A DNA stretch of 64,000 bases. Source: a phage. Both the position numbers and the translations under genes were made by a program. The notes under the pieces were generated by a model, which was not told the origin of the DNA, made no database searches, and saw only the letters and a list, made by a program, of their open reading frames with translations. Location: the sequence record PZ445428.1; one strand, 5' to 3'. Shown piece after piece: positions 29,596 through 62,064 of this stretch (its first letter is position 1; each line of letters begins with the position of its first letter).

Positions 29596-30553
29596 ATTTA
29601 GCAGCTCTAGCCAAAATTCGATCAATATCGTCTTGGGTCAGCTTTTCAACTTCACGGAAGTAAAGTTCTAGCTCGCCTAACATATCAAGATCGACAAGAT
29701 TTAATTTAGCATCTTTAGTAACTCGATGGTTAATCTTTTTATCTAAGAGATCGGAGTTCTTAACAGACTTCAACTGAACAACGTCACCAGTGACTTCATA
29801 GATTACACGGTCATAATCACTTGGTTCCATTTCTTCGCCAACCTCGATTGTCCTACGAATCAATTGAGGTAAATCACCAAGTTCAATCCATTCTACTTTT
29901 AATGTGTCGGTATCGATGATGAAACAACCATTCGTACCTTTTGTGCGTTCTCTATGGAACGATGTAGTTAACGGAGATCCTGGATAAAGAAGTTTAGTAG
30001 AACCAATAGTTTGACTATTAGTATAAGAATGTAAATCGCCAGCAATTACAGTGTCATAACAGTTATACCTCGTTAGATCAATCTCTGGTTTTACATGTGG
30101 AGGGATTTCACCACGAACATGCGTGAAACATAGTTTTGATTCAGATGGTTTCCACTTCGGTTTGTGGATTTCAGCGTAGGGAACTATATCATATTCTGGT
30201 GAACGATAGGGCTTAGTAACAACATCCCATTTTCCATTAGTTACCTTATGGATAACTCCAGCATAGTGATACAAACATGAAATTGTTTTGGTTAACATTT
30301 CATGGTTTCCGGTGAAGATCTTACCGGGATGATCAAGTCTTGACATGAATTGTTCAAGAAGTTCTACTTCTTCCGACGACGGGTCGGAATGGTCAAATAA
30401 ATCACCACCAATAATATGAAGATCACAGTTATGATTATGGAATACATCATTTAAACGGCCCCCCAACATTAAGAATCTCTTCTTTTGCCATTCTTTGGGG
30501 ATTTTGTCCTGTCCAAGTTTTATATGATGATCTGCGCTAAAGAGTATTTTCAT
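29576..30553 (-). CDS. SbcD/Mre11-like nuclease (calcineurin-type phosphoesterase)
   Basis: LFSADHH, GGDLFDH, GNHE, HVRG metallophosphatase motifs; adjacent to SbcC-like gene. Confidence 0.8.
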   Translation of the reverse strand: MKILFSADHHIKLGQDKIPKEWQKKRFLMLGGRLNDVFHNHNCDLHIIGGDLFDHSDPSSEEVELLEQFMSRLDHPGKIFTGNHEMLTKTISCLYHYAGVIHKVTNGKWDVVTKPYRSPEYDIVPYAEIHKPKWKPSESKLCFTHVRGEIPPHVKPEIDLTRYNCYDTVIAGDLHSYTNSQTIGSTKLLYPGSPLTTSFHRERTKGTNGCFIIDTDTLKVEWIELGDLPQLIRRTIEVGEEMEPSDYDRVIYEVTGDVVQLKSVKNSDLLDKKINHRVTKDAKLNLVDLDMLGELELYFREVEKLTQDDIDRILARAAKYVKDYN

Positions 30554-31074
30554 CTTTGTGCATACTTTCGCTTTATCTCTTGAATATCTATTCCTTGTTT
30601 CAGTTCACTCAAAACCTGGACTAAGATGCCCTCGAGATCTTTTCGTTCTTTACTAGCCATTATATGGTAGTGTTTTTTTTTTTTTTTATTATAATACAAA
30701 CGTAGAGTATATGTACTTGATTTGACATTGTAGCTTATATTTCCAGAATAATTTTCTATATTCTGCATGTTAGATCGGTGATCACCGTTTTTGAGGTTGT
30801 CCCATCTATTATCGTGTCGTATGCGATTATCATGGTCAATTTCTTCTGGCATCTCCCCGGTTTGCATTAACCAAATAAGTCTGTGCAACCTATATTTAGT
30901 TCCAAATACCATAGCATCTAAATATCCAGACTGCTTAGAGGGAGTTCCTACAGGTTTTCCTACACAATCTTTAGGAAGTCCATTTGACCATACTTTATAG
31001 GTTACAATACCTGTATCTGGATCATATGAGAATCTACGATGACATTCATTGTACAACTTAACTAAATCATCCAT
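30550..31074 (-). CDS. HNH homing endonuclease (HNH_3-like)
   Basis: GKPVG...GY...YRLHRL...IDHDNR...DNRWDNL motif set; paralogous to ORF 57161-57679; contains an A15 run (KKKKK). Confidence 0.6.
   Translation of the reverse strand: MDDLVKLYNECHRRFSYDPDTGIVTYKVWSNGLPKDCVGKPVGTPSKQSGYLDAMVFGTKYRLHRLIWLMQTGEMPEEIDHDNRIRHDNRWDNLKNGDHRSNMQNIENYSGNISYNVKSSTYTLRLYYNKKKKKHYHIMASKERKDLEGILVQVLSELKQGIDIQEIKRKYAQR
30673..30687 (-). repeat. Homopolymer run (T15 on plus strand, A15 on coding strand) inside HNH ORF
   Basis: 15 consecutive T at 30673-30687; encodes KKKKK in the minus-strand ORF. Confidence 0.9.
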
Positions 31075-31111: not shown

Positions 31112-31885
31112 TTAGTCGTCCAGATCGCTAGCAGCTTCTGCATCGATACCTTTCTGGGAACCAGCTTCGGAACCACCCTTAGCATCGCCACCTTCCTGCT
31201 TCTCACGTCCTTCCATGAAGGCATCTACTGCTTCTTTCTGTTCTTCGTAAGACGGAACCGGATAGGTTTCTTCCAGAGAAGGAACTTTCTCGAACTTCAG
31301 GAAATCGCCATTTTCATCGCTCAGTGCTTCACCGAGGATATCTACATCAGCAGCGTGTAACTTAGACTCAGCACTGTTAGGATCTTTCAGTTTCATCTGG
31401 AACTGCATTGCTGCAATCTGTTGTACATCGTACTCAGTTTCGAAGCCTTTACCTTTCTTCTCGATAGAGATATCGATATCGAACGGATCGGATAGTTCAA
31501 GCTGTTTCATGATAGACTTGATGCCTTTCAGGATAGTAGCTTTAACTTCCATTACTTTCAGTTTGTTATCAGAACGGTCGATAACGAAAGCGATGTAGTT
31601 CTTCTTAGGTTTCAGCGGAACACGATTACCCTCTTTGTCCAGATCTTTCTCGAAGAAGCCCATTTCATGGATCGGGTCAGCTTTACCACGAACAAAGCTC
31701 TCTTTAGTACGGTTGAAACGCAGGCACTCAAACGGAGCTGCATTACCATCTTTGTTAGTCAGCCAGTAGACATAACGCGGAAGAACACCAGAAACGATAC
31801 GAACACGAGTGATACCGTTGTTGAATTTCAGGAAGTCGATTTTATCGTTAGAACCGCCAGTAGTTTCGCCCCAAGACTTAGCCAT
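31112..31885 (-). CDS. Hypothetical protein with acidic C-terminal tail
   Basis: 257 aa, GAGGAA RBS, C-terminus ...GGDAKGGSEAGSQKGIDAEAASDLDD; an ssDNA-binding role is speculation. Confidence 0.3.
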   Translation of the reverse strand: MAKSWGETTGGSNDKIDFLKFNNGITRVRIVSGVLPRYVYWLTNKDGNAAPFECLRFNRTKESFVRGKADPIHEMGFFEKDLDKEGNRVPLKPKKNYIAFVIDRSDNKLKVMEVKATILKGIKSIMKQLELSDPFDIDISIEKKGKGFETEYDVQQIAAMQFQMKLKDPNSAESKLHAADVDILGEALSDENGDFLKFEKVPSLEETYPVPSYEEQKEAVDAFMEGREKQEGGDAKGGSEAGSQKGIDAEAASDLDD

Positions 31886-32162
31886 ATTTTATTTCCTCAA
31901 TAAATGTTAATTTCGATTTGTTAATTGCGATTAGTGGGTTAGTGTCGATTACAGAACGTGGTATCCATATCGGAACATATTGCATGTCCAAACTCGGATC
32001 GTTTGTAAACTTGTATTCGGCATAATTTCGTAGACTTAAAATTCCTAGATATTCTGCCAGTTGTCTATTAGACAGTTTGCGTGGATTATCAACTATCGTT
32101 GATTCATTCAAAATGAATGAGGAGCCGACCAGCAATTGGTGAGCATCAGGCTCTGCAAGCAT
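31878..32162 (-). CDS. Hypothetical protein
   Basis: 94-aa ORF; no SD at ATG; weak. Confidence 0.25.
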   Translation of the reverse strand: MLAEPDAHQLLVGSSFILNESTIVDNPRKLSNRQLAEYLGILSLRNYAEYKFTNDPSLDMQYVPIWIPRSVIDTNPLIAINKSKLTFIEEIKYG

Positions 32163-32269
32163 TCTATTAAATAACTTAACAATCAGGTCGGAATTTCCTC
32201 TAGCTAGTAAGTATAGCTTTTCATAGTCGAAGAATTTAATTTTTGTTTTCTCCTCGAATTTATGTATAT

Positions 32270-32299
32270 ATTATACTAGATTTCGAGAGAATTTAGCAA
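32270..32299 (-). promoter_or_regulatory. Early promoter cassette (copy B of a tandem pair)
   Basis: Minus strand TTGCTA-18 nt-TATAAT then ATATACATAAATTCGAGGAG. Confidence 0.45.
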
Positions 32300-32370
32300 G
32301 TACAATTTTTATTTTTCTGCTTCGGACTTTCTTATCAATCCGAAACTTTCTCTCTCAAATTTATGTATAT

Positions 32371-32399
32371 ATTATACAATAATTATGAACTGTTGCCAA
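32371..32399 (-). promoter_or_regulatory. Early promoter cassette (copy A of a tandem pair)
   Basis: Minus strand TATAAT then ATATACATAAATTTGAGAGAG; -35 region weak (TTGGCA) and inside the 3' end of the helicase gene. Confidence 0.35.
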
Positions 32400-33735
32400 A
32401 TGCAATTTTAGCTAACTGTACTGCTTTCTCCGGAGTCATAGTAATAGTTTTCCATGCATTATTGCGATACACGGCCATACGTCCGGAAGCCTGTCTTAAA
32501 CCAGTGCCACCTTTCATAATTAGGTCTACTACTATCGGATCTAACTTCCCATCAACTATACGTTGTACACGACCTGCTAACTGTTCTATTAACGATTCGT
32601 TATTAATGAGACTTCCCATTATTAAACAAGACAGCTCGTTAAGAGAAATACCTTCGGAGAAGATACTTTGTGCAGCAGCAAGACAACATGGACCACCTTC
32701 TGCTACTTCCTTCTGGATTCGCAGACGATCATCGAGTGGAGTTGCACCAATAATCTCGTAGGTTGTAACACCTCGCTGAGACAGTGCTTCTAGTATCGTT
32801 TGTATTAGTTCTGTCCTGTCACTCACAAACAGAACCTTATGTCCCATGTTCACATACAGATGCGCCAGATTAATAATAGTCTGACGATATTCAGGGTTAG
32901 AATACACATCATTAGCACGTAAAGCCCACGGAACGTTCTGGTTTCCAGACAATTCAACCGGTACGGAGTACCTGTGGATTGTAGGAGCGACAGTATTATT
33001 AACCGGAGGGCTAAAGATCTTATATCCAAAGAAATCTTTGAACATAACCTGCAAACCATCCTTACGTTTTAACGTACCGGATAGCCCAATCTTGTAGCGG
33101 GCACAGGAAATTTCCAAGAAATTAGTAAATGTAGTTGCAACACAATGGTGAACTTCATCCACAATAACTGTTCCAAACACTTTGGACAGCTGATTAGCGT
33201 GTTTATTTACTGTTTGTATATTACTAACCACAATAGGTGGGTCAATATTATACTTTCCTGAACCAATAACTCCAGGTTCAAACCCAAACCATTTACGAAC
33301 TTCGGCCATCCACATTTCACGGATGGAAGTATTCGTACAGATTACCAGAGTTTTCTGTCCAAACTTATACGCAAGTGCTAATGCTAGGATAGTTTTACCA
33401 AATCCTGGCTTACCATTGATAATGCAGGTATCATCACACTCTTCATAAATAGGTAACTGATCTTCTTCACGCAGTTTAAAAGATGGTTCTGGAATATAAA
33501 CCGGAGCCAATGTGCGTTTATCAACCAGTTCGTACTTCACTCCCTTAGCATCTAGTAAATCCAGACGTGTAATGGGAATCCACTTAATCTCTTTAGCAAC
33601 AACACCGCTATTCTTATACATAATAGGGTATTTACTTGTCATTGTCTCGACATGGTAAGTGGTTTGCTTACTACAATAATCCCAAAGTTCATCATCGGGC
33701 TTGAAATAGGCTTTATTAGATATAACAACCTTCAT
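32383..33735 (-). CDS. SF2 DExH-box helicase
   Basis: Walker A GKPGFGKT, DEVHH box, downstream helicase C-terminal motifs; located between polymerase and SbcCD genes. Confidence 0.75.
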   Translation of the reverse strand: MKVVISNKAYFKPDDELWDYCSKQTTYHVETMTSKYPIMYKNSGVVAKEIKWIPITRLDLLDAKGVKYELVDKRTLAPVYIPEPSFKLREEDQLPIYEECDDTCIINGKPGFGKTILALALAYKFGQKTLVICTNTSIREMWMAEVRKWFGFEPGVIGSGKYNIDPPIVVSNIQTVNKHANQLSKVFGTVIVDEVHHCVATTFTNFLEISCARYKIGLSGTLKRKDGLQVMFKDFFGYKIFSPPVNNTVAPTIHRYSVPVELSGNQNVPWALRANDVYSNPEYRQTIINLAHLYVNMGHKVLFVSDRTELIQTILEALSQRGVTTYEIIGATPLDDRLRIQKEVAEGGPCCLAAAQSIFSEGISLNELSCLIMGSLINNESLIEQLAGRVQRIVDGKLDPIVVDLIMKGGTGLRQASGRMAVYRNNAWKTITMTPEKAVQLAKIAFGNSS

Positions 33736-44436: not shown

Positions 44437-44467
44437 TTAAATACTCCTCTCTCAAATTTATGAATCT

Positions 44468-44496
44468 ATTATACAGAAAATTTTTGCAAGATGCAA
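44468..44496 (-). promoter_or_regulatory. Early promoter cassette
   Basis: Minus strand TTGCAT-17 nt-TATAAT then AGATTCATAAATTTGAGAGAGGAG and ATG 44436. Confidence 0.5.
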
Positions 44497-51276: not shown

Positions 51277-51304
51277 AGCTTTCTCCTCTCAAATTTATAA
51301 ATCT

Positions 51305-51333
51305 ATTATACACAAATTTTTAGCTGAAAGCAA
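51305..51333 (-). promoter_or_regulatory. Early promoter cassette
   Basis: Minus strand TTGCTT-17 nt-TATAAT then AGATTTATAAATTTGAGAGGAG and ATG. Confidence 0.55.
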
Positions 51334-62035: not shown

Positions 62036-62064
62036 TTGCTAAACGCTTCAAAATCTCGTATAAT
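62036..62064 (+). promoter_or_regulatory. Sigma70-type promoter for basic protein gene
   Basis: TTGCTA-17 nt-TATAAT. Confidence 0.55.

Follow-up and report, generated by a model that had tools for sequence, protein, structure and literature searches.

A candidate AUU start behind tandem early promoters between D10 and the T5.125 homologue of a T5-like phage

In Escherichia coli, infC and pcnB are the only confirmed AUU-initiated genes, and in reporters AUU reaches ~1-2% of the initiation obtained with AUG (10.1101/063800). In vitro, AUU mRNAs compete poorly against AUG mRNAs (PMC5499595). Tandem promoters are known as well, and a polymerase at the downstream promoter of such a pair can block or terminate polymerases arriving from upstream (PMC8830795, PMC11339919). 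For phage T5, Klimuk et al. described a discriminator motif common to all early promoters (PMC7472727). Here we analyze a 220-bp gap (32163-32382, minus strand) between the D10 helicase gene and an annotated 94-residue hypothetical open reading frame (ORF, 31878-32162) in a 64,000-nucleotide stretch of phage DNA (sequence record PZ445428.1, in the following called the window). An earlier note, made from the sequence alone, had described the gap as two promoter/ribosome-binding-site cassettes with no protein-coding gene behind them, which might serve a small non-coding RNA or a micropeptide or represent a recombination scar. According to our analysis the gap is very probably the control region of an early T5.125-D11 unit, in which the tandem sigma-70 promoters P31A and P31B are followed by a conserved 120-residue protein that is started at AUU and driven by P31B.

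The window corresponds to TrudiGerster, an Escherichia phage related to T5 (MZ501108; Demerecviridae, Epseptimavirus), with which it agrees at 100% over 601 bp around the gap; 441 phage records match the locus with an identity of at least 80%. A 25-nt cassette was found on the minus strand at 32352-32376 without mismatch and at 32251-32275 with one mismatch, the two copies being 101 bp apart. Allowing up to three mismatches, the window contains four matches compared to 0.01 expected from shuffles, and a looser census yields eight cassettes of this type. Thus, the pair of minus-strand early cassettes at a distance of ~100 bp reported in the earlier note is real and non-random, and each copy has its own -35 box (Table 1). 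P31A, which matches the consensus at 11/12 positions and whose spacer ends in TG (extended -10), is closer to consensus than P31B with 10/12 positions. The stop codon of the helicase gene (32385-32383) is located inside the P31A spacer. Transcription from P31B would begin at A 32263 (minus strand). The A-rich tract in front of P31B resembles an upstream (UP) element, and all lineages examined have a homologous A-rich tract ahead of their proximal promoter.

A conserved transcribed region is typical of the classical strong T5 promoters, for example PN25 (Bujard laboratory). PN25-type promoters comprise an A-rich tract, a TTGCTx -35 box, TATAAT and (C/T)ATAAATT(T)GAGAG within the first ~20 transcribed bases, and the cassettes here display the same architecture. 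They carry A/T-rich upstream tracts (AAAATTG / AAAAATAAAAATTG) and the downstream sequence ATATAC-ATAAATT(T/C)GAG, as other T5 early promoters do, with ATATAC as discriminator compared to the consensus ATATT given for T5 early promoters. In T5 itself the homologous gap, located between D10 and T5.125, is ~95% identical and shares the arrangement, a hairpin and the ATT codon with the window. At the homologous sites, T5 record AY543070 lists 'promoter P31A' and 'promoter P31B'; in record AY587007 the P31A site is given as 'repeat c copy 7' and the P31B site as 'putative early promoter T5P38'. In analogy to known tandem promoter pairs, two same-strand sigma-70 promoters ~100 bp apart would feed one transcription unit. 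Unlike in the known pairs, both are near-consensus phage promoters, some lineages contain an array of three, and the spacer carries a recurrent hairpin. Further early-promoter cassettes of the window were located at 44449-44473, 51286-51310 (minus strand) and 62059 (plus strand). The copy at 44449-44473 reads TATAATAGATTCATAAATTTGAGAG and, from its sequence TATAATAGATTCATAAATTTGAGAGAGGAG, is presumably identical to the T5 PN25 promoter of expression vectors; the cassette at 62059 presumably resembles PH207.

The ORF list available to the earlier note allowed only ATG, GTG and TTG as starts. Its statement that neither cassette is followed by a plausible ORF holds for the upstream copy, behind which only a 9-codon TTG frame is present, but not for the downstream copy, behind which an open frame with an ATT start was found whose homologues start with ATG. 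The frame of the 94-residue ORF remains open for 37 codons further upstream, up to a stop inside the second TATAAT, and no ATG, GTG or TTG occurs in it before Met27. As the note had observed, the ATG of this residue at 32162 is not preceded by a Shine-Dalgarno (SD) sequence. The ATT codon follows the SD sequence GAGGAG (Table 1), and six other cassettes of the window have an ATG 24-38 nt past the -10 box. At the homologous codon Salmonella phage Seafire has ATG, and its depositors annotated a 120-residue coding sequence (CDS) together with a ribosome-binding site. In a tblastn search with the extended protein, 905 of 907 phage records gave alignments beginning at residue 1-3, with identities reaching down to 43% (43-47% for Vibrio phages), and all but two of the 907 records align in a single piece over at least 80% of the extended protein. 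The PHROG 4258 profile (120 positions) matches residues 1-120 with its positions 1-120 at E = 8e-61; no Pfam family was found for the T5.125 homologue. Comparison of the gap across relatives thus uncovers a conserved ORF with a non-canonical start, and for the downstream cassette the idea of a gene-free gap has to be given up.

In two independent T5 records (AY543070, AY587007) as well as in those of BF23 and TrudiGerster the protein is annotated with 94 residues, and in none of the four was an ATT start recognised. Given these annotations and the very poor performance of ATT as start codon in reporters, the annotated protein from Met27 (32162) could be the real product, with the upstream open frame being a leader which is open by chance or from recent ATG ancestry. 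We consider this very improbable, since Met27 lacks an SD and is not conserved in the family, most database homologues being 116-122 residues long, and since nearly all records align over the extended protein as described above. Furthermore, within the ATT genomes only, codons 2-26 show at least eight synonymous and two conservative nonsynonymous changes, compared to 24 synonymous and 12 nonsynonymous changes in the remaining codons, and contain no stop or indel in 24/24 ATT loci. This pattern indicates that the 26 extra residues evolve under purifying selection within the ATT genomes. In an AlphaFold model calculated from the family alignment (mean predicted local distance difference test score, pLDDT, of 93.7) residues 1-30 reach a pLDDT of 96-97 and form a strand and two helices, so that the extension appears as an integral part of the fold. 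As the extension is conserved as part of the protein, AUU is the only plausible start in the window, and gene callers cut the protein to 94 residues because ATT is absent from their start-codon list.

Table 1 Features of the D10-T5.125-D11 region, given in positions of the window
Feature	Positions	Strand	Remarks
D10 helicase gene	32383..33735	minus	3' end holds the P31A -35 box and half of the P31A spacer
P31A core (upstream early promoter)	32371..32399	minus	-35 TTGGCA 32399-32394, 17-nt spacer, -10 TATAAT 32376-32371
Inferred P31A transcript start (A 32364) and conserved initial transcribed sequence ATAAATTTGAGAGAG	32350..32364	minus	placed 7 nt from the -10 box, the usual distance
Hairpin in the P31A leader, 10 bp	32319..32346	minus	GTTTCGGATT / GATAAGAA loop / AGTCCGAAGC; predicted
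A-rich tract AGAAAAATAAAAATT	32304..32318	minus	upstream of the P31B -35 box; resembles UP element
P31B core (downstream early promoter)	32270..32299	minus	-35 TTGCTA 32299-32294, 18-nt spacer, -10 TATAAT 32275-32270
T5-type allelic block, P31B -35 box to about codon 16	32193..32296	minus	29 consecutive informative sites match T5, none Seafire
Shine-Dalgarno GAGGAG of the T5.125 homologue	32250..32255	minus	9 nt upstream of ATT; computed anti-SD pairing -8.9 kcal/mol
Candidate ATT (AUU) start codon of the T5.125 homologue	32238..32240	minus	9 nt past GAGGAG, 29 nt past the -10 box
Codons 2-26 (KFFDYEKLYLLARGNSDLIVKLFNR)	32163..32237	minus	missing from the deposited annotation
Full ORF, 120 codons and stop, T5.125 homologue, PHROG 4258	31878..32240	minus	weak winged-helix-like fold
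D11 / single-stranded DNA-binding protein gene	31112..31885	minus	ATG overlaps the preceding stop codon (ATGGCTAA); own SD

Among close relatives the start codon is paired with the strength of the SD. T5 itself has ATT behind GAGGAG, and the first 31 fetched loci comprised 24 with ATT and seven with ATG. Exact-pattern scans, in which the third base of the start codon was left free, returned ATT in 20/20 GAGGAG loci and ATG in 6/6 GATGAGAGAC loci. The GAGGAG...ATT 50-mer has matches in 213 records of a large phage collection (192 exact), almost none of which has a CDS annotated over the site; the GATGAGAGAC...ATG 51-mer has matches in 221 records (212 exact), for which a CDS is usually annotated. 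No exception to the pairing of SD and start was encountered among the near-matches inspected. GreteKellenberger is ATG-type, yet annotated short, and IME178 carries a change in the spacer between SD and start. The computed anti-SD pairing of the ATG-type allele (GATGAGAGAC) amounts to -2.9 kcal/mol versus -8.9 kcal/mol for the GAGGAG allele. These values point to a strong SD which partly compensates for the weak AUU start, with a sister allele that combines ATG with a weak SD. In a fold prediction for 32223-32256 (minus strand), codons 3-5 (UUCUUCGA) are paired to the SD region UCGAGGAG, with the AUU located in the loop; such a pairing, if real, would make initiation in the ATT allele weaker still.

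Beyond these close relatives, orthologues start with ATG in Seafire-type, Klebsiella, Pectobacterium and some Vibrio phages and with TTG or GTG in others, and among 13 lineage representatives ATG was found six times, ATT three times, TTG three times and GTG once. A metagenomic relative with 55% identity (Logan SRR23015428), which is also called with 94 residues, carries upstream AAAGGAGAAATAAA-ATT-TTA-TTC-TTT-GAT-TAC-GAA, i.e. AAGGAG, 7 nt and ATT, followed by the family N-terminus LFFDYEK. On the family tree this sequence groups with sisters that start with TTG, and the T5-type ATT allele with a sister that starts with ATG; therefore, ATT arose, or was kept, in two separate clades. Computed SD/anti-SD pairing is strongest in the ATT lineages (-8.9 and -8.7 kcal/mol) and amounts to -7.9 kcal/mol in the GTG lineage, -0.6 to -6.4 kcal/mol in the ATG lineages and -2.8 to -3.7 kcal/mol in the TTG lineages; for the other early cassettes in the window, all with ATG, it ranges from -5.6 to -9.1 kcal/mol. 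That ATT occurs in two clades, both times behind the strongest SDs of the family, is a further argument against a 94-residue product. No lineage combines ATG with an SD stronger than -6.4 kcal/mol, which suggests, for a small sample of 13 representatives compared without phylogeny correction, that the gene is kept at low translational efficiency. Short annotation was also noticed at other starts. In Vibrio phage JSF10 (KY883654; locus 495-530) the CDS is annotated from a downstream TTG, and GGAAG, 6 nt and TTG-TTA-TTT-TTT-GAT (MLFFDYQK) are present 33 nt upstream of the annotated start, so that this annotation is too short. P0016 has an internal ATG as its called start, even though the family N-terminus is obtained from a TTG.

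As in infC and pcnB of E. coli, the AUU of T5.125 is found at a normal distance from the SD, and relatives have a canonical codon at the same position. The AUU of infC underlies its autoregulation by IF3. T5.125, by comparison, is a phage early gene for which nothing in the present analysis points to feedback. A second difference from infC and pcnB is that AUU and AUG alleles of T5.125 coexist at roughly equal frequency among close relatives.

Recombination has left clear traces at the locus. When the window was compared with T5 and Seafire at 259 informative sites, a T5-type block emerged (Table 1), whose flanks are mostly Seafire-type just upstream and mixed downstream. The T5-type and Seafire-type alleles differ at 29 sites in ~103 bp, far above the flanks. 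Thus, with 29 consecutive T5-type sites, promoter, SD, start and N-terminus form a discrete, highly divergent allele which moves as a unit, and the window, unlike T5, is an Epseptimavirus carrying the T5-type P31B/SD/ATT block as a recombinant patch. This patch is of Tequintavirus type and ~100 bp long, and it covers P31B, the SD and the ATT together with about 16 codons at the gene start. An identical 19-nt core, GTATAATATATACATAAATT, is common to P31A and P31B and absent from every other cassette of the window, and the UP/-35 regions of the two promoters are similar. Pectobacterium phage DU_PP_V has only one promoter at this place; it is homologous to P31A, overlaps the 3' end of the helicase gene and directly precedes the SD and ATG. 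The shared core together with this single unit suggests that P31B and the hairpin arose by duplication or insertion, which would leave the SD-like GAGAGAG of P31A stranded. 

The recombination scar proposed in the earlier note therefore captures part of the history of the locus, with its duplicated core and exchanged P31B block, but not a scar devoid of function. A non-functional upstream cassette without own activity, left by promoter duplication or cassette-mediated recombination, would be in line with the common core, the single unit of DU_PP_V, the exchange of the P31B block and the homing endonuclease genes inserted beside the cassette in relatives. Nevertheless, we regard it as highly unlikely. 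P31A is the copy closer to consensus, with a 17-nt spacer and an extended -10 box, and across ~440 genomes it hardly varies, unlike the synonymous sites next to it. Furthermore, multi-promoter arrays are kept as far as the Vibrio phages: three promoters precede the gene in Vibrio phage PG07 and a Klebsiella phage, and arrays of two are present in Vibrio phages D30 and JSF10 as well as four metagenomic lineages. Neighbouring promoters are 92-117 bp apart wherever this was measured; no conserved ORF is found between them, and the spacer usually contains a hairpin. In three lineages the proximal TATAAT is located only 1-2 nt before the TTG or ATG start (4 nt in the Klebsiella phage, 11 nt in PG07). 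A transcript from such a proximal promoter would therefore have little or no leader or lack the start, and only the upstream promoter could give a translatable mRNA. From these arrangements the upstream promoters would appear to be functional rather than redundant.

Some relatives carry an inserted HNH homing-endonuclease gene between helicase and P31A, for example Salmonella phage vB_SenS-AKM_ECS (locus 1064-1594) and GreteKellenberger (locus 1-168); the last helicase codons are replaced and the P31A -35 box remains intact. The cassette spacer was also considered as an empty slot for mobile genes and was rejected as such: no relative has an insertion there, and 438/441 records are colinear.

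The P31A-P31B spacer itself is conserved and probably structured. Among 26 unique T5-like sequences the P31A cassette and the spacer are nearly invariant while adjacent synonymous sites vary. Compared to shuffles, the spacer folds with z = -3.2 in the window, -4.3 in Seafire and -3.5, -3.4, -5.3 and -2.4 in four other lineages; altogether, 6/10 spacers from eight lineages fold significantly (z from -2.4 to -5.3) and the other four do not. The stems differ in sequence and place: in T5 and Klebsiella phages they precede the A-rich tract, and in others they enclose it together with the -35 box. The Klebsiella phage keeps the 3' arm of the hairpin with a new, closer 5' arm (CTTCGG-AAAGT-CCGAAG). 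A covariation check within the T5-like phages revealed five singleton changes only, of which two keep pairs, two break pairs and one falls in the loop; across lineages the stems are not positionally homologous. The significant folding makes a structured P31A leader likely. A long-range helix, in which the 5' end of the P31A transcript (UUUGAGAGA) would pair with the P31B spacer (UCUCUCGAA) and which was predicted in both alleles, was rejected as a composition effect: compared to dinucleotide-shuffled spacers it gave p=0.16 for the window and p=0.03 for Seafire, and it is absent in most lineages.

From such a spacer P31A might produce a regulatory non-coding RNA of ~50-100 nt containing the hairpin, which ends before or at P31B by processing or polymerase collision. 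The near-invariance of the spacer, which exceeds that of the adjacent helicase coding sequence, the significant folding of six of the ten spacers and the recurrence of a hairpin at this position with different stem sequences would agree with an RNA of this kind, and tandem-promoter collisions are reported to cause premature termination (PMC11339919). The small non-coding RNA of the earlier note is nevertheless hardly borne out by our searches and appears unlikely. A terminator scan of 31500-33000 returned 0 terminator-like sites, hence none between or just after the cassettes, and the tract after the hairpin is A-rich, not U-rich. No match was obtained with Rfam 15 at E<=1 for 31800-32600 on both strands. 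The A-rich tract and -35 box of P31B explain much of the conserved spacer, the different placement of the hairpin among lineages argues against one conserved RNA, and the long-range pairing of the window is no better than in shuffles.

The two short frames listed in the earlier note, a 6-codon ATG frame (32224, MKSYTY) and a 9-codon TTG frame (32338, MIRKSEAEK), are both present as described. The former lies out of frame inside the conserved coding extension. Expression of the latter (32338-32309) as a micropeptide from the upstream cassette strikes us as extremely unlikely. Its TTG is found 32 nt past the -10 box, within the 24-38 nt range of the real starts, and the sole two substitutions in the frame among T5-like phages are synonymous, albeit in a tiny sample. 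However, the GAGAGAG is weak and 11 nt away from the TTG, which is partly contained in the hairpin stem. The frame is not kept in the homologous spacer segment of the Klebsiella phage, which has no TTG or ATG in that frame and whose only ATG frame is a different one, and no comparable frame exists in other lineages. Hence, no conserved ORF follows the SD-like GAGAGAG of P31A.

According to the arrangement proposed here, P31A and P31B would act as two strong early promoters feeding the T5.125-D11 unit. As the D11 ATG overlaps the stop codon of the T5.125 homologue, both genes form one transcription unit. Translation of the first cistron is probably poor in either allele, by AUU with a strong SD or by ATG with a weak SD, and D11 with its own SD would be made abundantly. 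The GAGAGAG of P31A would belong to the conserved transcribed part of this promoter type, and its resemblance to a ribosome-binding site is probably left from a time when the promoter directly preceded the gene, as it still does in DU_PP_V. P31A transcripts would have a leader of ~100 nt with the hairpin and, because no terminator was found, would probably read through P31B into the same genes. Beyond this arrangement it is conceivable, although rather doubtful, that weak initiation of the first cistron is a selected operon design, conserved across the Demerecviridae through interchangeable routes, and that mRNAs from the distal and proximal promoters differ in T5.125 translation. Such routes may include AUU with a strong SD (twice independently), AUG with a very weak SD and UUG or AUG located 1-4 nt past the proximal -10 box.

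Several points weigh against reading the gap as the control region of an AUU-started gene with two active promoters. A generic promoter scan of a 1.5-kb region found four sites versus 4.0 in shuffles, so that the promoters are identified by the specific cassette and by homology to the annotated T5 promoters, and these annotations may themselves be predictions. In the literature no T5 dataset with transcription-start or translation-start resolution and no N-terminal peptide for this locus was found. With AUU at only ~1-2% of AUG, the protein may be very scarce, or some product could begin elsewhere. Occupancy of or collision at the downstream promoter means that read-through from P31A is not guaranteed, and possible premature termination on collision leaves a minor possibility of short RNAs from P31A. 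Finally, the near-invariant P31A-P31B spacer together with its significant folding suggests a leader function beyond the explanation given here.

Further observations concern the surroundings of the locus and the deposited records. A 174-residue ORF with an HNH-like motif lies between D11 and the D12 nuclease gene (30550-31074 of the window, minus strand); the record annotates a shorter CDS there as 'putative homing endonuclease', and T5 has only a terminator at the same position. PQ773600.1 (41 kb), deposited under the name 'Corynebacterium phage CPphiVTCCBPA_418', shares 98% identity with this enterobacterial T5-like locus, pointing to contamination or a wrongly named host. The same suspicion falls on 'Listeria' and 'Campylobacter' phage records among the locus matches.

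The annotated promoters of T5, tandem promoters and AUU initiation are already known, and the finding is mostly ordinary biology plus a useful correction of annotation. Apparently new are the recognition of an AUU start and a length of 120 residues for T5.125 and homologues in ~200 genomes, the pairing of SD strength with the start codon and a second, independent AUU lineage. In the T5 reference genome and ~200 related phage genomes the annotation of this early protein thus appears to lack 26 residues, which applies to every ATT-type record inspected. Since the missing part comprises a strand and two helices of the fold, cloning or modelling of the 94-residue version would mean working with a broken protein. 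For other 'orphan' promoter/ribosome-binding-site cassettes in T5-like genomes, a near-cognate start and a tandem-promoter layout should be checked before an RNA gene is proposed. The ~50:50 polymorphism of AUU and AUG among close relatives, with SD strength shifting in the compensating direction, offers a natural experiment on start codon and SD. If the tentative weak-initiation design is true, the two to three tandem promoters and the hairpin leader would not be redundant, all of them feeding abundant D11, and the AUU allele would also couple the synthesis of T5.125 to the IF3 activity of the infected cell.

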